Source: a virus
Lineage: Duplodnaviria > Caudoviricetes
Direction: 5' to 3' (one strand)
Virus record (IMG/VR): IMGVR_UViG_3300027193_000501
Span: 101,922 to 165,921 of that record
Length of the DNA stretch: 64,000 nucleotides
The position numbers and the translations under genes were made by a program. Below are positions 6,031-50,185 of this stretch, one piece after another. Below the pieces are notes generated by a model, which worked only from the letters and a program-made list of their open reading frames with translations, ran no database searches and was not told the DNA's origin. How positions within the stretch are numbered: the stretch's first letter is position 1; each line of letters starts with the position of its first letter.

Positions 6031-6060
6031 AAAAGCCAGAGAATATTCTCTGGCTTTCTT
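6031..6060. terminator. Bidirectional intrinsic terminator
   Basis: aaagccagagaa-ta-ttctctggcttt between convergent genes. Confidence 0.75.
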
Positions 6061-6061
6061 A

Positions 6062-6316
6062 TTATTCGTCAAATATTATCCAATCATCATTAACAATATC
6101 TTGAAGGTATGGACAATAAGCTTCAATACCATCCTGAAGATTGATTAAGAAAAATGTAGCATAATCAATCTCACTGGTATCTACAATAGTTTCATCAAAT
6201 TCACCCTCATCATCTTGTTTTGTATTACCTAAAGCAATCCAAGATACTTCATCCCAGCAAGTTCTACGAGCTTTGTATCCTTGCTTCAAATATTTAAGAG
6301 TCTGCACAAATTTCAT
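6062..6316 (-). CDS. Tad2/DUF2829-like protein
   Basis: MKF..L..LKQGYKARR..W ... YCPYLQDIVNDDW. Confidence 0.75.
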   Translation of the reverse strand: MKFVQTLKYLKQGYKARRTCWDEVSWIALGNTKQDDEGEFDETIVDTSEIDYATFFLINLQDGIEAYCPYLQDIVNDDWIIFDE

Positions 6317-7651: not shown

Positions 7652-8011
7652 ATGTGGTATAGAATATCAGCAGACAATATAGATATCAAAAAAACATGGA
7701 CAAAAACATCAAATAACCAAGAATCAAATGAAGAATGGCTAGAAAGACATAAAGTAGATAGAGAAGGCGATAAATACGTTTTTTATCATGGCTCTAGATT
7801 AGACTTAGAAGAGCTTAGATCAGGCTCTTTATTAGCTACATCTCCACAAGAAGCTGAAGATTTTGGTAATACTAACTTTTGGAATGATAAAAGAAAAACA
7901 TTCAAAGTATATAAAGTAGTAGTAAATGCGGATGAAATACACCCAGGATATTGGGCTAGTCTTGTAAATGATCATCCAGTAGAAATATTATATAAGAAAA
8001 GAAATATATAA
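7652..8011 (+). CDS. Putative ADP-ribosyltransferase-like fold protein, MWY leader
   Basis: VFYHGS...LATSPQEAEDF...VYKV resembles the ART-like H-G-S/T strand pattern. Confidence 0.4.
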   Translation: MWYRISADNIDIKKTWTKTSNNQESNEEWLERHKVDREGDKYVFYHGSRLDLEELRSGSLLATSPQEAEDFGNTNFWNDKRKTFKVYKVVVNADEIHPGYWASLVNDHPVEILYKKRNI

Positions 8012-8243: not shown

Positions 8244-8690
8244 TTACCACCAAAGTTCAAACCATAATTTAGAAAGATAGTCTACTGCTTTTCTAACATC
8301 ATCAGTAAGTTGCTTTCTTTCTTCAATATCAGTAGATTCATAATATTTATTAGTAGTATAATAGTTTTCAAAAGCACTAATGATGAAATTTAGTTTTTCA
8401 TTATAAGATTCTACTGTCTCACCAGTAGGGATACCATTATTAACTTCAATAAATCTCTTGAGTCTAGGAATAATAAATAATGCCATAGTGCGGTCAATAT
8501 GCCACGTTTCAGTGTCGTCAAAACCATTCTCAAATCTTTGTTGCTTGTACATTTCAAGTGTTGTAGGGTCCTTGCCATAACATTCTTCTGCAACACTGAA
8601 ATTAATATTCTTAAGACCCTCTGGCTTTATAGATAATTGCAAGTAGTCTTTTGATTTCTTCAAGGTCGATTTTGATTTGTTTTCGCTCAT
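8244..8690 (-). CDS. Conserved hypothetical phage protein
   Basis: GFDDTETW..D..MA.FI.PRL motif; C-terminal LWW. Confidence 0.65.
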   Translation of the reverse strand: MSENKSKSTLKKSKDYLQLSIKPEGLKNINFSVAEECYGKDPTTLEMYKQQRFENGFDDTETWHIDRTMALFIIPRLKRFIEVNNGIPTGETVESYNEKLNFIISAFENYYTTNKYYESTDIEERKQLTDDVRKAVDYLSKLWFELWW

Positions 8691-8998
8691 CCAAGATCTT
8701 CCGCTTTTCTAAAATATGCTGATGCTGTACGAATAGCCCAAGCACATAATGCACCAAGAATAAAATCAGAAGTTAATCCACCAATCTTATTCCATGTAGA
8801 AATACCAATCATAATTCCACCAACCATGAGAAGCCAGCCCATAGTACGTAGGTCATCGATTTTAGATTTTACTGTTTTTTCATGAACAACTAGCTTTTCA
8901 ATTCTATCTTGTTCTTCAGGGGATAACTGCAAAAAATCAGCTACAGAACCTACTTGAAATCCAGCTTCTTCTAATCGATTTTTCTTATCTTCATTCAT
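8687..8998 (-). CDS. Membrane protein with antitoxin-like N-terminal segment
   Basis: KKNRLEEAGFQVGSVADFLQLSPEE followed by two hydrophobic helices. Confidence 0.55.
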   Translation of the reverse strand: MNEDKKNRLEEAGFQVGSVADFLQLSPEEQDRIEKLVVHEKTVKSKIDDLRTMGWLLMVGGIMIGISTWNKIGGLTSDFILGALCAWAIRTASAYFRKAEDLG

Positions 8999-9401
8999 CT
9001 TCATTAGCCTCTTCAGAATCACCGTTAATAAAATCAATCAAATCTCCAGGAACCATATCCCACATTAGACCTTTTTCTTCAATCGTTTCTGTATCCCATT
9101 GGTCTAACTGGTCTAGCCAATCTGTATAGTCCTCATATTCTTCATCGAATTTTTCCTGAAGAGTATCAAAGTCTAATTGGAATTCTTTCTTGTAAAACTT
9201 CATAGCTTTATCAAAAATACCACAGTCAGAATCAATCTCCAAATAAGCATAACCCTCTTCGTTGAGAGTATCATTACTATTACCAAGATAAGAATATTCT
9301 GAAATAGCTTCGATAATATTAAGCTCGTTCAATAATTCTAAACTGACTTTCCAATAATCATGTCTATAGCAATCAATCGCCGGAATCGTAATCTTGCTCA
9401 T
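8991..9401 (-). CDS. Acidic hypothetical protein
   Basis: ORF coupled within the operon. Confidence 0.6.
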   Translation of the reverse strand: MSKITIPAIDCYRHDYWKVSLELLNELNIIEAISEYSYLGNSNDTLNEEGYAYLEIDSDCGIFDKAMKFYKKEFQLDFDTLQEKFDEEYEDYTDWLDQLDQWDTETIEEKGLMWDMVPGDLIDFINGDSEEANEDE

Positions 9402-9826
9402 TAATCTTCCCATTTCTTTAGCATATCAATAATTACATGCTCAGGAACATTATGCGTTCTTTTTTGTCTTTCCGCAAGCTCTTTAATAAAATCATCTGAA
9501 TAATTTGTAGGATCTAAAGTTTCAAATTTTACTTCATATCCTAATTCTTCAGCAGCATCAATATATTTTTCATATTGCCAACGCTGAACATTAGTATTAT
9601 CGATTATTACAGGAGAAACACCATCCTTCATAGATTGAATGGCTGCTTCTAAATTTTGCTGATGATAATCCTTAATTTTGTCAGGATTAAATTTGTATTC
9701 ACCTGTATTTGGATCTGTTAAGAAAGAATCTGTAGAATGAATAACACCCTCTTCTAATAATTCTTTTGCTCTTGTTGATTTACCACTTCCAGGTAAACCT
9801 CTCATAATAATTAAAGTTTTATTCAT
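9401..9826 (-). CDS. AAA_33 P-loop (polynucleotide kinase-like) protein
   Basis: MRGLPGSGKST, VIIDNTN, HNVP motifs. Confidence 0.85.
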   Translation of the reverse strand: MNKTLIIMRGLPGSGKSTRAKELLEEGVIHSTDSFLTDPNTGEYKFNPDKIKDYHQQNLEAAIQSMKDGVSPVIIDNTNVQRWQYEKYIDAAEELGYEVKFETLDPTNYSDDFIKELAERQKRTHNVPEHVIIDMLKKWED

Positions 9827-9828
9827 AA

Positions 9829-9981
9829 TTATTCTTCTCTCTTTTTTGCCATTTTAACAAGCTTGATTATAATATTAACTAGTAAGGCAATTATTGCAAC
9901 AGGTATTGCTAGCAAAACAATTAAAATAAAAGGTCCAAAAGGAATTATAAGCCAATGAGCAGTGTTAAGAAAATCTTCCAT
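9829..9981 (-). CDS. Small membrane protein (50 aa; absent from ORF track)
   Basis: MEDFLNTAHWLIIPFGPFILIVLLAIPVAII... fills the operon gap exactly. Confidence 0.55.
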   Translation of the reverse strand: MEDFLNTAHWLIIPFGPFILIVLLAIPVAIIALLVNIIIKLVKMAKKREE

Positions 9982-9982
9982 A

Positions 9983-10195
9983 TTATTCGTCACTACATAC
10001 TTTCTGTGGCTTGATTTCTAAACTATAAGCCACTTTTTCTTCTTCAAAACAATATCTCAAAGCTTCAAGAAATTCTTTTCTATCATTGTAATAAAGGGAT
10101 TGAAGCATCTTAACCATCTCTTCTTCTGGCACTTCTGAATCTTCATCAGCAGTAATATCAATATCAAAAGATAAGTTTAATCTGTACTTAGGCAT
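9983..10195 (-). CDS. Hypothetical protein
   Basis: ORF within the coupled operon. Confidence 0.55.
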   Translation of the reverse strand: MPKYRLNLSFDIDITADEDSEVPEEEMVKMLQSLYYNDRKEFLEALRYCFEEEKVAYSLEIKPQKVCSDE

Positions 10196-10401
10196 TCTAC
10201 TATTTCCCAATCATCACTCAAAAATTCAGTAGCATCAACAACTTTACTAGTCCAAATAAGTCTTCCGCCAAAACCCCACCTTATTTCATTATGTTGATCT
10301 AAAACACCAAGCATCTGAAACAAATACTCGCCTTTTTTCCAATGAATTCTTCGCACTTGATATCCTTTACGAATTGCTTTAAGTGCTTTTATTCCAGTCA
10401 T
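10177..10401 (-). CDS. Tad2/DUF2829-like protein
   Basis: MTGIKALKAIRKGYQVRRIHW...EFLSDDWEIVE. Confidence 0.7.
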   Translation of the reverse strand: MTGIKALKAIRKGYQVRRIHWKKGEYLFQMLGVLDQHNEIRWGFGGRLIWTSKVVDATEFLSDDWEIVECLSTD

Positions 10402-10676
10402 TCTACTATTTGCCAATCATCGTGTAAGAACTCACCCGCTTCTATCTTATCAAATAATCCAAAGAAATCATCAAAAGTAGTCTTAGTAAATGCAAAACTA
10501 TTTTGAAATATTTTCTCTATTTCTTTATCTAAAATTTTATCATCCTGTACTTTTTCCAGATGTATAATCCATTTACCAAAGAAATCTAAGGCTTTACATT
10601 TTTCATGAGCTTCCCAGGATGTTCTTCTTAATGTTTTGCCATCTTTTAAAAGGGACAAAGCTTCGATTCCAGTCAT
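10398..10676 (-). CDS. Tad2/DUF2829-like protein
   Basis: MTGIEALSLLKDGKTLRRTSW...EFLHDDWQIVE. Confidence 0.7.
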   Translation of the reverse strand: MTGIEALSLLKDGKTLRRTSWEAHEKCKALDFFGKWIIHLEKVQDDKILDKEIEKIFQNSFAFTKTTFDDFFGLFDKIEAGEFLHDDWQIVE

Positions 10677-10891
10677 TCTACAACCTCCCAGAAGTCAGAC
10701 ATCAAATCTTTAGGAGTAAGATCTAGTGTTGAATAAAATTGTGTCCTACATACTTCTCCATCTAAGACTTCGTAGAAATCAAAAGTGTTATCTTCCTTGT
10801 CGTAGATTAAGAAAGCAGTAGTACTTTCCCAATTGGTCTTACGCACACGCTTGCCAGACATTAATGAGTCAATGACATCAGCAAATTTCAT
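10673..10891 (-). CDS. Tad2/DUF2829-like protein
   Basis: MKFADVIDSLMSGKRVRKTNW...DLMSDFWEVVE. Confidence 0.72.
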   Translation of the reverse strand: MKFADVIDSLMSGKRVRKTNWESTTAFLIYDKEDNTFDFYEVLDGEVCRTQFYSTLDLTPKDLMSDFWEVVE

Positions 10892-10911
10892 TCTACTTCC
10901 TCCCAGTCCTG

Positions 10912-11178
10912 TCATTCTTCATCTACCTTTTTGTTAGCGTCAACAATATGGTCTAAATCCCAAGTATCAATATCCCAATCTTCAGCAACAACATCACGGG
11001 GTTCTAAATCAAGACCGAATGTCCCTAATTCATAACCGTTTTCTGAATCATCTGCATAATATACATACACAAAAGAATCTTCTTCTTTGTCATAATACAT
11101 ATATTTGCCATTTTCCCAACCAGTGCGAGAAATTGGTTTACCTTCCATTAATGAATCAACTACTTCAGAGAATTTCAT
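10912..11178 (-). CDS. Tad2/DUF2829-like protein
   Basis: MKFSEVVDSLMEGKPISRTGWENGKYMY...DVVAEDW. Confidence 0.75.
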   Translation of the reverse strand: MKFSEVVDSLMEGKPISRTGWENGKYMYYDKEEDSFVYVYYADDSENGYELGTFGLDLEPRDVVAEDWDIDTWDLDHIVDANKKVDEE

Positions 11179-11393
11179 ATTAAAACATCCCAATCTTCAG
11201 CAATAATATCTTCTGGTTTTAAATCAAGTCTATAGGTGATAAATTCGTAATCATCTTCTTCGTAATCTTCTTTGATATGATAAGCAAACCAATTTTGTTC
11301 TTTATCAAGATACAAAAATTTACCATCAGGCCAAACGCTTCTCGATATTGGCTTGTATTGCATCAAAGAATCAATTACTTCAGAGAATTTCAT
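11175..11393 (-). CDS. Tad2/DUF2829-like protein
   Basis: MKFSEVIDSLMQYKPISRSVW...EDIIAEDW. Confidence 0.75.
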   Translation of the reverse strand: MKFSEVIDSLMQYKPISRSVWPDGKFLYLDKEQNWFAYHIKEDYEEDDYEFITYRLDLKPEDIIAEDWDVLI

Positions 11394-11658
11394 CTACAAC
11401 TTCCCAATCGTCTTCTAATAAATCCCCATTATCAATAACATCATAATAACTTACATAGCTGGAAAATTCAGGCTTTTCAGGAACCCATTGTGGAACTAAA
11501 TGCGTGTCTAAAGCAAATAATATAGGGTCATCAATATTAATCTTAACAGACTTCATATCATCACTGAAATAAGCCTTACATTTTATATCAGGTTCCCAAG
11601 CTTTACGCCTAAGAATATATCCAGCTCGTAAAAGAGTTAATGCATCAGTTCCATTCAT
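11380..11658 (-). CDS. Tad2/DUF2829-like protein
   Basis: MNGTDALTLLRAGYILRRKAW...DLLEDDWEVV. Confidence 0.7.
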   Translation of the reverse strand: MNGTDALTLLRAGYILRRKAWEPDIKCKAYFSDDMKSVKINIDDPILFALDTHLVPQWVPEKPEFSSYVSYYDVIDNGDLLEDDWEVVDEIL

Positions 11659-11878
11659 TTTTATTTTTTGTAACAGGCTCAAAACTATAAGAAGCATTAG
11701 GATCAAGAATCAATACATCTGCTGTAACCCAATTAGCCTCGATCAGATTCTCACCAAAAAAACAAGTCTCAAGCTTTTCGTCTAAGATTCTCCACTTAGA
11801 AATTCCATTATCATGTTTTTGAACGACGATAAACCCCATTTTCAATTTATATGTAACATCAAAAGAAATATTAAACAT
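11645..11878 (-). CDS. Hypothetical protein
   Basis: ORF inside the Tad2-like array, unrelated sequence. Confidence 0.55.
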   Translation of the reverse strand: MFNISFDVTYKLKMGFIVVQKHDNGISKWRILDEKLETCFFGENLIEANWVTADVLILDPNASYSFEPVTKNKNEWN

Positions 11879-12127
11879 CTAATCCACTAGCTCCCATTCA
11901 TTTTCAAATATATCACGCAAGAATTCTTCTATAATTTCTTGATTATGTAAGTTAGTCCAAGGTGTAGAAGGATTCAAATTTGGAACCCTTGGAAACTCTT
12001 CTGACCTAACTGAAAAAGCATATCCAGAATAATCAGAATAATACAAATACCAATCCTTATTTTCCCAAGCTTTACATCTGATTTTACATCCTTTTTTAAT
12101 AAATTGCAATGCTTCTAAACCATTCAT
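11879..12127 (-). CDS. Tad2/DUF2829-like protein (divergent)
   Basis: MNGLEALQFIKKGCKIRCKAW...IFENEWELVD. Confidence 0.65.
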   Translation of the reverse strand: MNGLEALQFIKKGCKIRCKAWENKDWYLYYSDYSGYAFSVRSEEFPRVPNLNPSTPWTNLHNQEIIEEFLRDIFENEWELVD

Positions 12128-12384
12128 TGATTTATATAATTCTCAATATTACCTTTGATATCTTTATCCCACAAATAACAAGCATCAAAGCCAAATTCAC
12201 TATCTTCAAATGTCACCCAAATAAAATCACCTTTAGGATCAAGACGTACAGATTTAAAATCACCAAAATTTAATTCATCACATACAATTTTAGCAATAGA
12301 TTCCATATACTTTTGAAACTTAAGATAACTGTAAATTCTTCCACGGACAAAATCCTCAGAATAAATAAATTGTTCAGTACTCAT
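12124..12384 (-). CDS. Hypothetical protein
   Basis: Coupled ORF. Confidence 0.6.
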   Translation of the reverse strand: MSTEQFIYSEDFVRGRIYSYLKFQKYMESIAKIVCDELNFGDFKSVRLDPKGDFIWVTFEDSEFGFDACYLWDKDIKGNIENYINQ

Positions 12385-13072
12385 TTCTATCTTTCATAAT
12401 CTGATCTTGCATTTCATCAACTTCAGCTACAACATCAACAACTTCCCAATCGTCTGCTAACAAATCTTCATATTTTATCATTAGTGAATTTGTATACATT
12501 CCAATACCCAAGTCAGAATGCCAACTCTTACGTCTAATTGTTTTTCCAGCATACATATCATCTAATACATCCTTGAATGTTTTAAAATGAAAAATCTCCC
12601 AATCCTCAGCGAATAAATCTTCAGCAGTGATTTTAACATTAGAATTATCATAGTTATCAGGAGGAAATAAATAAATCTTTGGATTGCCTTCTCTTGTAAC
12701 GATCTTCCCATGTTTAAGCATATCAAGAGCCCAATTAATATCTCTTTTCAACCTAATATCATTCTCTTCAGCAAAAGTATCAAAATCACTACCAACGAAC
12801 TTATTATTAAATTTATTCTTAGGCATAGGTAAAATCTTCCAATTATTATAGTTCTTCCAATGATCAAACCTTACAGGAATCAAAAAATCTTGTGTATTTA
12901 AATCGTACAGGTAGAAATCTTTAAATTTACAAGCGATTACAGAGGATGAATGATTATCTTCACCAAAAGCAAAATATCTTCCAGAGAGTAGAATTCTTTT
13001 AGCTTCTTCAAAAGTAAAATTTCTTCCCTTATAATCTATCTCATTTAAATAACCAAAATATTTCTTTGACAT
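12374..13072 (-). CDS. Multi-domain Tad2/DUF2829-like protein (2 clear repeats, 1 degenerate)
   Basis: ALDMLKHGKIVTR...EDLFAEDW followed by FKDVLDDMYAGKTIRRKSW...EDLLADDW. Confidence 0.7.
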   Translation of the reverse strand: MSKKYFGYLNEIDYKGRNFTFEEAKRILLSGRYFAFGEDNHSSSVIACKFKDFYLYDLNTQDFLIPVRFDHWKNYNNWKILPMPKNKFNNKFVGSDFDTFAEENDIRLKRDINWALDMLKHGKIVTREGNPKIYLFPPDNYDNSNVKITAEDLFAEDWEIFHFKTFKDVLDDMYAGKTIRRKSWHSDLGIGMYTNSLMIKYEDLLADDWEVVDVVAEVDEMQDQIMKDRNEY

Positions 13073-13131
13073 TTAAGCCTCATAACATTCTACCACAAAA
13101 AAATAAAGGCCTGATTTCTCAAGCCTTTTTT

Positions 13132-14945: not shown

Positions 14946-15926
14946 TTATCTCTTAGGTGGTAATGAATTTTGCTTTACTTCAAAAACACCATTACCAACA
15001 AAATCACCAAGCGTTTTATATCCACTGTACGAAACTGCTGAAGATAGCCCACCCCAAAGCTCATCTACAAGAACTTCAAGAGGACGCAATTCATCAACAA
15101 TAGCTACTTCTTTACCCTCAGAATGACGATATACTTTACCAGTGGAGAGAATCTGTTGCTTATGAGATGCACCACCCCAATAGTTTCCGTCTCCTCTTAA
15201 ATGAGTTTCTGCTTCAAACGCTCTAGCAAAATACCCACCCATCATAACATAATCCGCTCCAGCACCAAATGCCTTAGCAGCATATCCAGCATTCTTAATA
15301 CCACCGTCAGCAATTACAAATGGACCTGAATCATAAGTATATTCTTCAATTTCCATGATTTCAGTAATTGGACCACGATTGTATCCAGTAGAATCATTAG
15401 TAGCACAAGGACTTCCACCAGCAATACCTACACGAATATATTTATCATGCTTGGAATTTAATTTAATTTTTGAAAGCAACTCAAATCCAAGAGCTGAATG
15501 AACATTACCCAACATTAAATCATACACTGGAGCAATCTGTTCTAGCTTTTCAGTACATTCAGTAATTTCTTTGTGCATATAACCATTAGCCATATCAATT
15601 AGCCATTTATCAGCACCACAATCTTTTAATGCCTTGACCCTATCCCAATCATTCAAACCGATAGATACAAATACATTAGCTTTATTAGGTAAAGAATTAT
15701 AAAGCTCAACCTGCTCCTCAATAGAACAAAAACGATGAAGACAAACTGTAAGACCAAGCTCATTAGCCTTTAGAGCAAATGTTTTACCAACAATAGCTTC
15801 CATAGGAGAAACTATGATTCTATTTAACTCTACAGGAATATCTTTACGAGACTTAACTTTACAAGGTTGAGCTACAAGATTTACATCATTATAATAAATA
15901 GACTTAGACTTGAGAATTTCTGCCAT
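14946..15926 (-). CDS. GMP reductase / IMP dehydrogenase family protein (no CBS domains)
   Basis: RVGIAGGSPCAT catalytic loop, IADGGI, KAFGAGADYVMMGG, SEG. Confidence 0.85.
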   Translation of the reverse strand: MAEILKSKSIYYNDVNLVAQPCKVKSRKDIPVELNRIIVSPMEAIVGKTFALKANELGLTVCLHRFCSIEEQVELYNSLPNKANVFVSIGLNDWDRVKALKDCGADKWLIDMANGYMHKEITECTEKLEQIAPVYDLMLGNVHSALGFELLSKIKLNSKHDKYIRVGIAGGSPCATNDSTGYNRGPITEIMEIEEYTYDSGPFVIADGGIKNAGYAAKAFGAGADYVMMGGYFARAFEAETHLRGDGNYWGGASHKQQILSTGKVYRHSEGKEVAIVDELRPLEVLVDELWGGLSSAVSYSGYKTLGDFVGNGVFEVKQNSLPPKR

Positions 15927-16503
15927 TTTTCTTACTTTCAATTACACAATCAATAACACCATACGTTTTGGCTTCTTCCGCACTCATGTAATAATCTCTA
16001 TCACAGTCTTTAGCAATCTGCTTCTTCGTTTTACCAGTGGAGAGAGAAAGAATATCGAATAATTGATCTTCCAACTTATTTGTCTCATTAACCTGAATAC
16101 GAATGTCAGCAGATGTACCACGAAAACCAGAAGATACCTGATGAATCATAATACGAGAATGAGGCAAAGCAGATCGAGTACCAGTACCACCAGCTAAAAG
16201 AATAGCTCCCATACTAGCTGCCATACCTACACAAGTGGTATTAACAGGAGCAGAAATTGTATTAATAACATCATACAAAGCTAATCCCGCACTAACACTA
16301 CCACCAGGACTATTAATATAAAACTCAATCGGTCTATGACTATCTTCCTTGTCTAAAAATAACATCTGAGCGATAATCAAATTAATAATATAATCATCTA
16401 CCTCTTGCCCTAAAAAGATAATTCGGTCTTTAAGTAATCTAGACCAAATATCATAAGCACGTTCACCGGTAGATGATTTTTCTAATACTGTAGGAATAAT
16501 CAT
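15904..16503 (-). CDS. clpP: ATP-dependent Clp protease proteolytic subunit
   Basis: DIWSRLLKDRIIFL, YINSPGG, AASMG, MIHQ, DRDYYMSAEEA. Confidence 0.95.
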   Translation of the reverse strand: MIIPTVLEKSSTGERAYDIWSRLLKDRIIFLGQEVDDYIINLIIAQMLFLDKEDSHRPIEFYINSPGGSVSAGLALYDVINTISAPVNTTCVGMAASMGAILLAGGTGTRSALPHSRIMIHQVSSGFRGTSADIRIQVNETNKLEDQLFDILSLSTGKTKKQIAKDCDRDYYMSAEEAKTYGVIDCVIESKKNGRNSQV

Positions 16504-16572
16504 AAACCTATTTTACCACACACAAAAAAAGAGAGGCATAAAATACCTCTCTTCCTTAAGTAAAATTATGAT

Positions 16573-17076
16573 TTACTTAATTTTAATTTTCTTTACTGTT
16601 TCTTTAAGCTCTTCTTCTTTAAAAACAATCTTCTTAAAAGCTAATTTAAGAATACCAGCTTCTAAATGACAAACTTCAGGGTCAAGCTCAAGATTGTCTG
16701 GTAATTGAATTGTTCTTGTAAAAGCAGATTGCTTCAATTCTTTAAGATGATAGAAATAACTCTTCTCTCTAAGGATTCTTGAATTTCCAGTGATTGTTAA
16801 AAGCTTAGTTTCTTTGACAACTTCAATGTCAAGATCTTTTTCTTCAACACCGGGTACAGCAAAGTCCAAACAGAAATAAGAATCATCTTCAAAGATATCC
16901 ATTTTTGGATAAGAAGTGTTGGAATGAATAAAGTTTTTACGATTACCTAAAAAATCGTCAAAAAACTTGTTGATAATCTGTTCATGTTGATCCATGATCA
17001 CATTACGATTGGGCATTAAAATTCTACGCTGAGGTAGATTCAATACATCATCAATACTAGCCATATAATTCTCCAT
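16573..17076 (-). CDS. Small heat-shock protein (Hsp20)
   Basis: YPKMDIFE...AVPGV...FTRTIQLP...GILKL. Confidence 0.88.
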   Translation of the reverse strand: MENYMASIDDVLNLPQRRILMPNRNVIMDQHEQIINKFFDDFLGNRKNFIHSNTSYPKMDIFEDDSYFCLDFAVPGVEEKDLDIEVVKETKLLTITGNSRILREKSYFYHLKELKQSAFTRTIQLPDNLELDPEVCHLEAGILKLAFKKIVFKEEELKETVKKIKIK

Positions 17077-40280: not shown

Positions 40281-40499
40281 ATGAAACTTGAACAAGTACT
40301 ACCGATGCTTAGAAATGGTGAAACGATTACTAGGACTAGGCTTTGGAACGGTCGTAGCAGAGTAGTTTATTTTGTCAAGATTATGGATGAACAACTAAAA
40401 TTCAAGTTCATCGCTAGAGACGGAACAACTACTTCTTGGCATATGTACAGTATGCGAGAACAAGATATTTTAGCAGAAGACTGGGAGATAGCAGGATGA
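40281..40499 (+). CDS. Tad2/DUF2829-like protein (leaderless, early promoter)
   Basis: MKLEQVLPMLRNGETITR.RLWNG...QDILAEDWEI. Confidence 0.72.
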   Translation: MKLEQVLPMLRNGETITRTRLWNGRSRVVYFVKIMDEQLKFKFIARDGTTTSWHMYSMREQDILAEDWEIAG

Positions 40500-47917: not shown

Positions 47918-48134
47918 ACTAGATTTATATTATATTACACTGGTACTTAGGCTTGTAAACAAGCCTAACCTACAGCCTTAAATAATAAGAATCGTTCCCA
48001 ACAATTCCTGTTATATTACACTGTCGGTTAGAGCCGGACGTTTAATGGAAAGTTAATATAAATATAATCTTGCTACACTGGCGAAGAATGATATAATTCT
48101 ATGTCGCACCCGTTGCGACGAGGAGATTTGGAAA

Positions 48135-49460
48135 ATGTCAGATAACAACAACCGTGCATCGTTCATCGAATTTGGCGATGCTGTGCCTGTAGCACAACCA
48201 AACAATTCTGTATTCGGCAATGAGACCGGTTTGCAGGTTCGTCCTGATTCTGTTGCAAAGCAGGACACCAACGGCAATTGGGTAAACGCTATCGGCTTGG
48301 CAAGCACGGAAGCGCACCGCCACGTTGCTAAGGTATGGCAGGACAAGTGCATCTCACTTGACGATGCATACACCGTCATCAAGCAGGAAGCAACAACAAA
48401 GTTTGACCTTACTGTACCAGAAGAGCAGGTACGCTTGGTCGAACCGTTCAAACTGGTGAACGGAACACCTATTAACGAATCCGGCTTGGAGGCTCTGCGT
48501 TTGCTTACCGGTAACGTCAACAACCCTGCCGTACCGGGCAAAACCGTGGAATTCCAATTGGAGCATGGTTACACTGGTGACCTTGTACGCTACATCAATG
48601 ACGGTCTTAACCGCCGGTCGGCAGATTATCGTGCGGGCAAAGAATTCCGCCTACGTTGCCGTAAGACCGATGATGGTTCGGATATCGTCCGGGCTATCGT
48701 ATCTGACCGCTACGGGGTCATAGATAACGATGAAGCACTAGGGATGGTAATTGACGCTTTGCCATCGTTGCAGGACGCTCTTGCATCACACTGGTGGAAT
48801 GACGGTGATTCGGTCATCGGTAACATTCTGTTGCCCGACCACATGAAAAGTCAACCGGATTCCGACTACGGTGTTGGCATCTCATTCCGCAACAGCGAGA
48901 TTCGCAAGTCGGCGTTTACCATTGCACCATTCTTATTCCGTGCCATCTGCCTTAACGGAATGATTTGGGGACGGCGTACATCTGCCATCGGCGTGAACAA
49001 AAAGCACTTAGGTATCATCAACAAGGATGACCTTAAGCAAAGCGTTGCCCATGCCATCGGCGTAGCCCTTACCGAAGGTAACGATATGTTAACCTTGATG
49101 GGCTACTCCAAGCAGGTAACGGTCAAAAACGTAGAGCAGACAATTGCACTGTTTGCCCGTGACCACAAGATGACCGTGGAACAAGGTAAGGCATGGCACA
49201 AGGGCTACTTGGAGACCCTACAAGAGCCAAACGGTGAGGTATCCGACCGTACCGCATTCGGCATCGTCAACGGTCTTACACGGTCTGCACAGGGCTACAC
49301 AGGGCATATGCGTGAACACATGGAAACGACCGCATCCATCATTCTCGCACCTGCCATCGATGCGACCTTGGATGCCATCCGCAAGCGTTGGAACACCGAA
49401 TCCAACAAGGCATCCACGCTTGATGCCCGTACCGTAGAGCAGTATGTGTACATCGGGTAG
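48135..49460 (+). CDS. DUF932-like protein, GC-rich cassette
   Basis: RAIVSDRY..IDN, GISFRNSE, FLFRAICLNGMI, T.FG.VNGLT. Confidence 0.7.
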   Translation: MSDNNNRASFIEFGDAVPVAQPNNSVFGNETGLQVRPDSVAKQDTNGNWVNAIGLASTEAHRHVAKVWQDKCISLDDAYTVIKQEATTKFDLTVPEEQVRLVEPFKLVNGTPINESGLEALRLLTGNVNNPAVPGKTVEFQLEHGYTGDLVRYINDGLNRRSADYRAGKEFRLRCRKTDDGSDIVRAIVSDRYGVIDNDEALGMVIDALPSLQDALASHWWNDGDSVIGNILLPDHMKSQPDSDYGVGISFRNSEIRKSAFTIAPFLFRAICLNGMIWGRRTSAIGVNKKHLGIINKDDLKQSVAHAIGVALTEGNDMLTLMGYSKQVTVKNVEQTIALFARDHKMTVEQGKAWHKGYLETLQEPNGEVSDRTAFGIVNGLTRSAQGYTGHMREHMETTASIILAPAIDATLDAIRKRWNTESNKASTLDARTVEQYVYIG

Positions 49461-49688
49461 GGCTTGGGAGGGAGGGGGAAACCCCTCCCTGTTTGACCAC
49501 ACATTCCCAGCTTTGTCAAGAAAATATTTCAATTATTTTTTACTGGCGGTTAGGTTTGTTTACAAACCTAAGATACAGCCTTAAATAATAGAATTCTGTA
49601 ACGATCGGATCGCTATCACGAAAAATCTATTTTGTCAAATTTATTTTTTAGTGTTGCATATGTTATTTAAATGCTGTAAGATAGAGAC

Positions 49689-49985
49689 ATGAGCCTAGAA
49701 ACCACATGGAACGCCTCGTTCCAATATATCCCCGTCTTGGAAATGACCTTGGTCAAATCCACCGCTGTAAAAGCATTGGCAATCGTAGAGGATTGTGTCT
49801 ACGTAGAATTTAACAAAAGTCGCAAAGTTTACATCTACCAGTGTGGAGAAGGATTCTGCGACCTGATAAAGCAAACCGTAACGAACGGTGGCTCCTTGGG
49901 CAGACTGATGCGTCTGCTGTACACTGAAGACCCGGCAGAATTCTCTTGTTGGGGCGGTGAAGTATCTTACAAAAATACATTGTAA
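49689..49985 (+). CDS. KTSC-like domain protein
   Basis: VKSTAV...VYVEF....VYIY...GSLGR. Confidence 0.5.
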   Translation: MSLETTWNASFQYIPVLEMTLVKSTAVKALAIVEDCVYVEFNKSRKVYIYQCGEGFCDLIKQTVTNGGSLGRLMRLLYTEDPAEFSCWGGEVSYKNTL

Positions 49986-50185
49986 GATACTTAGTAAAAC
50001 CCTCTGGAGAAATTCAGAGGGATTCTTTTTATTTAAGGCTGTATCTTAGGTTTGTAAACAAACCTAACCTTCAGTAGAAAATAATAAGATTATCATCAAT
50101 TTATTTCTACATCACCCCTTGCACTATAGCATCTGTTAGCCTATAATACGTTGTAGATAAATTCTACACGGAGATAGTAACAAAG

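Follow-up and report, generated by a model that had tools for sequence, protein, structure and literature searches.

A putative coupled operon of short-form Tad2-like paralogs in a jumbo phage

A stretch of 64,000 nucleotides from a virus of the Caudoviricetes, the final 64 kb of a 165.9-kb IMG/VR record (IMGVR_UViG_3300027193_000501, positions 101,922 to 165,921; hereafter the window), carries a minus-strand operon, from 13072 to 10177, in which eight Tad2-like genes form an array, with two further copies dispersed at 6062 and 40281. Judged by its sequence, the array is part of a large, uncharacterised class of short (~64 amino acids, aa) Tad2-like domains in which multiple copies, as fusions or as neighbouring genes, are common. 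The reading that we prefer, drawn from sequences, structure models and analogy with characterised homologues, and standing in our estimate about evenly between right and wrong, is that the array is a cassette-like coupled operon of short-form Tad2 paralogs that act as retuned small-molecule sponges in counter-defence. The CheckV completeness of the record is 46%; since a relative of 358 kb is 89% complete by the same measure, the source appears to be a jumbo phage of ~360 kb.

Tad2 was first described as a single gene of 89 aa with more than 650 homologues. Members of the family inhibit CBASS, Pycsar and Thoeris I, II and IV via two different interface pockets (10.1101/2025.08.24.671296; 10.1101/2023.11.15.567273); the second pocket, built by a middle insertion, binds cyclic dinucleotides. 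MoTad2 holds histidine-ADP-ribose (His-ADPR) and cyclic UMP (cUMP) in two pockets and Tad2_71 holds N7-cyclic ADP-ribose (N7-cADPR). Tad2 is often fused to other sponge families (10.1101/2025.07.12.664507). A survey that covered one length class put the share of Tad2 proteins without a functional site for glycocyclic ADP-ribose (gcADPR) at only ~1%, and in a family survey of single genes about a quarter of the homologues acted on none of seven systems. Sponges have also served as hooks, 3'cADPR having been found via Tad1 and His-ADPR via MoTad2. In the literature searched, outside which most subscription journals lie, there is no Tad2 array, and the words "tandem" and "paralog" are absent in connection with Tad2.

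Ten genes with the sequence frame of Tad2 and its fold in two models

Eight of the ten open reading frames (ORFs) at 10177-13072(-) match Pfam PF11195 (Tad2-like, formerly DUF2829; cut-off 25 bits, profile length 73) over profile positions 1-73, with 24.6-42.3 bits and E-values of 4e-5 to 1e-10, and the two ORFs interleaved with them, at 11645-11878 and 12124-12384, have no PF11195 match. Together with the dispersed copies, which a preliminary description made from the sequence alone had likewise listed, ten genes thus cover PF11195 to position 72 or 73 from position 1, six of them at or above the cut-off (25.5-42.3 bits) and four at 24.6-24.9 bits. When all 165.9 kb of the record were scanned in six frames, every PF11195 match fell within the window and none in the remaining 100 kb. 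A hidden Markov model built from the array copies and two orthologues (profile A2) retrieves from the Protein Data Bank (PDB) all solved Tad2 chains, those of MoTad2, SPO1 gp34.65, HgmTad2/AcrIIA7 and SptTad2, with E-values of 5e-10 to 2e-4, the next row being at 0.33, and phmmer matches the solved Tad2 chains directly with the copy at 40281. The profile comparison proposed with the preliminary description therefore came out in favour of its Tad2/DUF2829 assignment. All copies share a sequence frame made of helix α1, a glycine, (R/K)xxW and a C-terminal (D/E)hhxxDW.

Structures were modelled for two of the proteins, c4 and m232. The AlphaFold2 model of c4, computed from a 17-row alignment (A3) with a mean predicted local distance difference test (pLDDT) score of 73, consists of a helix at residues 3-11, four strands, a helix at 60-63 and an extended segment at 68-70. 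Its top 24 matches in the PDB are Tad2 chains (probability 1.00, template-modelling (TM) scores 0.53-0.67), followed by a row of probability 0.38, and its matches among predicted viral structures (BFVD) are Tad2-like proteins; this list points to the Lactobacillus phages Iacchus and Semele as cultured phages with more than one Tad2-like protein. In m232, residues 18-82 (pLDDT 55-75) have the Tad2 fold by structure alone, with the same order of elements as in c4; a VIA search of 48,161 chains, independent of Foldseek, gave MoTad2/ModTad2 with a Z of 6.4 and a root-mean-square deviation of 2.4 over 61 aligned residues, AcrIIA7 with a Z of 6.3 and the next row with 4.4. The structural match that had been suggested as a check was thereby obtained for c4 and for the N-terminal domain of m232. 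Two ultra-short domains of ~50 aa each follow in m232, at residues 111-163 and 165-214 (A2 profile E-values of 1.9e-8 and 7.1e-11), and are nearly invariant among five orthologues. With three domains in m232 the total is 12 domains in ten genes, so that the earlier count of at least 11 is raised by one through the fold of the m232 N-terminus. Taken over its full length, the m232 model is poor (pLDDT 42), and we make no claim on the packing of its three domains. From profiles and models, the assignment of the array copies and of both dispersed copies to the Tad2 family is sound.

The operon reads m232, o9, c8, o7, c6, c5, c4, c3, c2, c1. Its first gene, m232 (12374..13072), encodes 232 aa with the three Tad2-like domains and matches Pfam in two stretches with 42.3 bits. 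The remaining Tad2-like genes are c8 (11879..12127; MNG type, 82 aa, 24.9 bits over profile positions 1-73, with an orthologue in locus L020 of a relative), c6 (11380..11658; MNG type, 92 aa and a long insertion in the middle; 24.7 bits), c5 (11175..11393; MKF type, 72 aa, 29.1 bits), c4 (10912..11178; MKF type, 88 aa, 32.2 bits, with the C-terminal tail DHIVDANKKVDEE), c3 (10673..10891; MKF type, 72 aa, 24.6 bits), c2 (10398..10676; MTG type, 92 aa, 25.5 bits) and c1 (10177..10401; MTG type, 74 aa, basic with an isoelectric point (pI) of 7.9; 24.7 bits). The dispersed copies are d6062 (6062..6316, minus strand; 84 aa, 37.3 bits), which is followed by a terminator-like hairpin at 6031-6058, and d40281 (40281..40499, plus strand; 72 aa, 39.7 bits), the sole WNG copy and the closest to the canonical form. 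Neighbouring array genes overlap by 4, 11 or 14 nucleotides or abut, the single gap being the 20 nucleotides between c4 and c3; this is the arrangement expected of a translationally coupled operon, which the preliminary description had proposed. A terminator-like hairpin just upstream of m232 (13105..13128, minus strand), recognised in a pattern scan by a 10-pair stem and a T run that match the consensus, is a candidate for the upstream boundary of the transcription unit. A promoter scan returned 62 sites against 60.4 in shuffled sequence, so no promoter is claimed.

Divergence, constraint and turnover of the copies

The copies are old paralogs with pairwise identities of 17-56%: c4 and c5 share 56%, c3 and c4 38%, c2 and c6 34%, c1 and c2 30%, and the remainder less. 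Alignment and identities bear out the two proposed subgroups, an MKF type (c3, c4, c5) and an MTG/MNG type (c1, c2, c6, c8). Compared with orthologues in a 261-kb relative (G004, array locus L009), the Tad2-like genes have ratios of nonsynonymous to synonymous substitution (dN/dS) of 0.15-0.38, which indicates that they are maintained, and every copy with an orthologue there is seen, in this sequence comparison, to be under purifying selection. Four flanking genes have ratios of 0.10-0.15, and the Tad2-like copies are perhaps under slightly weaker constraint than these. The synonymous divergence (dS) itself is 0.27-0.49 for c2-c5 and 0.9-2.1 for the flanks.

The C-terminal tail of c4 (window 10912-10965) is conserved in alignment A3 as W-D-x-D-H-(I/V)-V-D-(A/T/V/D)-N-K-(K/M)-V-(D/E). 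It recurs at L013:8001-8264, L015:3872-4132, L016:7899-8240 and L018:7986-8249 and is retained in unrelated complete phages; at the L015 site it is carried by a c3-type body. To judge from its sequence, the tail resembles a short linear motif through which a partner might bind.

Related phages of ~260-360 kb have three to nine copies in different combinations and orders. The array of G004, with about eight genes, reads upstream copy, m289, o9, o7a, o7b, c6, c5, c4, c3, c2, o7c and the orthologue of d6062, which there lies within the array operon. At L009:8978-9691 in the same relative, the c2 orthologue is in frame with the orthologue of window 8991-9413, a 140-aa acidic protein, in a 237-aa ORF that is an apparent fusion. 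In G003 four or five genes are present (locus order, with o9 and o7a included: m281, a 62-aa type, o9, o7a, c6, c4), the d40281 orthologue being elsewhere in the genome; L020 has eight (locus order, with o9 included: m291, the 62-aa type, o9, c8, c6, a new 78-aa type, c1, c4 and a new 76-aa type); G008 has about six at the examined locus and eight Pfam matches record-wide; and the fragments of other relatives have about three. Across these loci there are at least 15 orthologous types, and orthologues persist in at least seven related contigs; those of c6 are 71-80% identical in four viral contigs and that of c1 in L020 is 90% identical. Close relatives thus differ strongly in their copies, whereas the genes on the flanks are constant. 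Nucleotide identity is a mosaic, with window 11905-10408 at 84% to G004, the c1 block at 91% to L020 and the flanks at 65-80%, and this difference in nearest kin between parts of the array points to cassette exchange. The constraint, the low identities and the shuffled sets of the relatives all support the earlier description of a diversified paralog repertoire. Contigs that encode the chimera-like P0005 and the middle-deleted P0015 were not used as evidence of recombination, the contigs being 0.5-0.8 kb long and one having a coverage of ~1.

The junctions between genes share a consensus, GAYTGGGARNTNGTAGAATGA, which encodes the conserved D-W-E-x-V-E-stop end and overlaps the next ATG; the TGGGAG within it is located where a ribosome-binding site would be and may serve as that of the next gene. 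Such repeats would supply the homology for gain, loss and recombination of copies. One junction is an orphan: between c4 and c3 (10888..10915, minus strand), direct reading of the sequence finds ATGACAG, an MT-type start that overlaps the c4 stop, followed at once by GAC TGG GAG GAA GTA GAA TGA, which encodes D-W-E-E-V-E-stop and overlaps the c3 start. This is likely a relic of a lost copy. At the same site G004 (L009) and G008 (L013) have a degenerate D-L-E-M-L-E-stop, so that the loss appears old; an initial reading as a recent deletion was moderated on account of these decayed forms.

Beyond the relatives, the array profile retrieves 1,849 cluster representatives at E ≤ 0.001 from 1.84 billion proteins. 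The best 150 of these comprise 249 domains (median length 64 residues), with two domains in 87 proteins and three in six (array profile, domain E ≤ 0.01); WNG is present in only 15, and W-x-(P/A)-S-x-x-(D/E) in only 11, of the 249. The number of domains per protein rises to four stretches in the large profile search and to five, by Pfam, in P0002, and in P0006 and P0039 a short non-canonical domain is joined to a canonical one. Complete phages of 32-59 kb that have terminal repeats also carry arrays of three to four such genes. In two unrelated phages (L016:7288-7692 and L015:3484-3882) an HTH_7 or homeodomain-like DNA-binding domain is fused, inside a Tad2-like array of the phage concerned, to a short Tad2-like domain (HTH_7 29.7 bits; array-profile E-value 9e-7), a combination that could be a ligand-responsive regulator.

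Pocket residues and candidate functions

The gcADPR bound by SPO1 Tad2 has its main contacts in W25, N26, W73 and D79 from two protomers, and T78, S76, H71, D67, I63 and T65 assist (10.1101/2023.05.01.538930); the HgmTad2 mutants W21A/N22A and S90A/T92A/D93A lose binding (10.1101/2023.11.15.567273). The corresponding positions were read, in SPO1 numbering, from an alignment in which six canonical WNG-type domains, chosen among the database matches, were set beside the 12 domains. The equivalent of W25 is retained in ten of the 12 domains, and the D79 position is D in the same number and E in two. N26/G27 and W73/S76/T78 are replaced in the array copies; WNG is found in d40281 alone and W-x-P-S in no copy, much as the preliminary description had noted for WNG and W-x-P-S-Q. 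Where canonical proteins have W-x-P-S-x-T-D, the MKF type has LDLxPxD, which is retained in unrelated complete phages of 32-59 kb, and the MTG/MNG type has FDx(I/L)(D/E)xG(D/E).

When four copies of c4 were folded together, the prediction scored 0.67 against 0.00 for the best of three controls, a value that comes from an alignment of our own and from four copies where the calibration used two, and that shows likeness but possibly reflects memory of the solved Tad2 tetramers; of the proteins in that calibration, 20 of 30 with a solved one-chain pair came up to the mark, as did one of 23 solved as single chains. Contact agreement between runs was at least 65% and partner pLDDT at least 73, under the same mismatch and possible memory. 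The confident contacts involve residues 2-11, which form α1, and residues 54-64, and in the model the segments that bear the subgroup motifs coincide with the latter part of the predicted interface.

On the reading of the array as a set of sponges, each copy would form a Tad2-like oligomer, held together through helix α1 and the loop that precedes the DW strand. Its inter-protomer pockets would have been rebuilt, the subgroup motifs replacing WNG and W-x-P-S-x-T-D. The most likely role would then be counter-defence by the capture of small-molecule immune signals of the host that are distinct from gcADPR, and the record of the family favours sequestration of this kind; d40281 would be the copy most likely to bind a signal of the ADPR type.

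Several observations weigh against a sponge role. The complete canonical gcADPR pocket is present in none of the 12 domains, d40281 alone coming near (W-N-G ... Y ... D). N26 is retained only there; the position after W25 is taken by E in c2, c3, c4, c6 and c8 and by K, P, D or H in the others, and the loops that form the pocket are acidic. W73 is retained in no domain: three of them (d40281, d6062 and the first domain of m232) have Y at this position and the rest have L, D, K or V, in a region whose alignment is uncertain and which HMMER treats as an insertion. Published sponges are said to possess positively charged pockets (10.1101/2025.07.12.664507); most copies here have a pI of 4.0-5.0, only c1 and d40281 being basic. 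The HTH_7 fusion shows that the short domain can be used for other ends, and in the literature we found no assay of any short-class member. The description of the copies as immune-signal sponges thus stands as far as family and fold are concerned; its functional half would follow by homology with characterised sponges, and the canonical pocket does not come with it.

The loss of the canonical ligand contacts is also what would be expected if the copies were counter-defence proteins that bind host proteins, the Tad2 fold serving as a stable platform, acidic and oligomeric, that obstructs the enzymes of defence as anti-CRISPRs or DNA mimics do. In keeping with this, c3-c6 and d6062 have a pI of 4.0-4.4 and c4 a net charge of -17 over 88 residues, turnover between relatives is fast and accessory-like, and AcrIIA7, which belongs to the family, was initially reported as a Cas9 inhibitor of unknown mechanism. 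AcrIIA7, however, is HgmTad2, later shown to be a sponge; canonical sponges are acidic too, with a pI of 4.9 for SPO1 Tad2 and 5.04 for MoTad2 (PMC13299392); and the motif of each subgroup is located exactly at the pocket-forming loop, as would be expected of a conserved cavity. We consider binding to host proteins unlikely.

A role outside defence would make the short domain a general ligand-binding or oligomerisation module for the phage's own regulation or metabolism, such as nucleotide buffering or metabolite sensing. The HTH_7 fusions within arrays of unrelated phages, the chains of up to five domains and the mixed neighbourhood, with an AAA_33 kinase and, farther upstream, GMP reductase, ClpP and Hsp20, would fit such a module; the strong variation of copies between constant flanks, however, is characteristic of arms-race cargo rather than of housekeeping genes, and all characterised members of the family are anti-defence sponges. 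Taken together, these points leave it distinctly improbable.

An extension of the sponge reading, which we offer as a long shot, is that the coupled paralogs co-assemble as mixed Tad2-like tetramers, the pan-repertoire of at least 15 types giving combinatorial pockets for undiscovered immune or decoy signals; non-nucleotide or cationic ligands might be among these, because the acidic pocket loops suggest them. Finally, that the array is functionless, decaying duplicate DNA is scarcely credible and already contradicted by the selection data: several Pfam scores lie slightly below the cut-off and the relic junction shows copy loss, but all frames are open, dN/dS against G004 stays in the range given above despite a dS of up to 1.1, the fold frame is retained by paralogs that share only 17-56% identity, and the orthologues have persisted among the relatives.

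The array exposes a large short class of the Tad2 family that has grown to ten genes per genome in one phage clade, each subgroup with its own conserved pocket motif. If the copies are ligand binders, a panel of hooks with which to fish for unknown signals would be at hand; should they bind proteins, the Tad2 fold would have had a second career. Either outcome would change the reading of PF11195 matches, which are now labelled anti-Thoeris by default in phage annotation.

Genomic setting and comparison with known systems

Two genes of the operon are not Tad2-like. The 86-aa o9 (12124..12384, minus strand), between m232 and c8, has no Pfam or PHROG match; it is conserved in all relatives at 39-43% identity (43% in G003), and its dN/dS of 0.53 is the maximum of the operon. 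The 77-aa o7 (11645..11878, minus strand) belongs to a second small family, with invariant D7, L12, G15, W29-R30 and W50 in alignment A4, that has one to three paralogs per phage and travels with the array (L009:7556-7771, 7781-8011 and 9691-9921; L004:6264-6482; L020:6588-6818). The family has no Pfam or PHROG match, and the idea that o7 is a hidden Tad2-like domain was rejected, hhalign against the array profile giving a probability of 3.7%.

The minus-strand gene run continues immediately downstream of the array with a gene for an AAA_33 or polynucleotide-kinase-like P-loop protein (9401-9826; 60.9 bits in Pfam, with PHROG matches to ATPase and polynucleotide kinase), and farther on, at 8687-9037(-), a 116-aa ORF whose N-terminus, NRLEEAGFQVGSVADFLQLSPEEQ, is followed by a hydrophobic segment and which has no Pfam or PHROG match. 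Upstream, at 14946-17076(-), are genes for GMP reductase/IMPDH-like, ClpP and Hsp20 proteins, where synteny with the 358-kb relative is interrupted by an insertion containing a sigma-factor-like gene (L003:10492-13269). Assigning a host through the GMP-reductase gene was abandoned; the sole lead was a 5-kb contig of a gammaproteobacterial metagenome-assembled genome, which may be phage DNA itself. The window has a G+C content of ~30% and five tRNA genes; at 48001-50000, where there is a 441-aa ORF with a DUF932 match, G+C reaches 0.48, against ~0.30-0.35 elsewhere. Searches of cultured-phage records with DNA and tblastn returned no match for the region, for c4 or for c6 and one chance-level match for d40281, and pattern scans using the loose alignment A1, m232 and c8 returned zero loci.

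Among known systems, SPO1 Tad2 (gp34.65; PDB 8SME/8SMF/8SMG and 8WJE), the founder of PF11195, shares with the array copies the sequence frame, aligning over the whole profile with an E-value of 2e-7, as well as the predicted fold (TM 0.58-0.67) and the equivalents of W25 and D79; the homo-oligomer through α1, tentatively predicted for c4, would be a further likeness. It is, however, a protein of 89 aa encoded by one gene, whereas the copies described here are of the short class, with ~64 aa per domain and ten genes per genome, and are known from sequence and models. ModTad2/MoTad2 (PDB 9EIB and 8V3E; His-ADPR, and cUMP in the second pocket) is the best match both in sequence (E 5e-10) and in fold, and it demonstrates that pockets in the family are retuned and that two different interfaces are used; unlike the array copies, MoTad2 has WNG and W-T-P-S-x-S-D. 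HgmTad2, which is AcrIIA7, and SptTad2 (PDB 8KBI-8KBM, 8WJC and 8WJD) bind cyclic dinucleotides with a β2-β5 insertion, and the variable middle of the array copies, long in c2 and c6, is at the position of that insertion. The insertion sequences differ, however, most array copies having a much shorter middle and the C-terminal domains of m232 almost none.

The fusions of sponges (Acb4-Tad2 and Tad2-Sequestin; 10.1101/2025.07.12.664507) resemble the array in principle, one phage combining several modules that would cover several signals, and m232 and many of its relatives likewise link two to five Tad2-like domains in one chain. Those fusions join different families, whereas the modules here are paralogs of one family and mostly separate, coupled genes. 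With anti-CRISPR and anti-defence islands the array shares runs of small genes, a content that varies between close relatives, and cassette exchange; such islands gather unrelated families, while here a single fold dominates.

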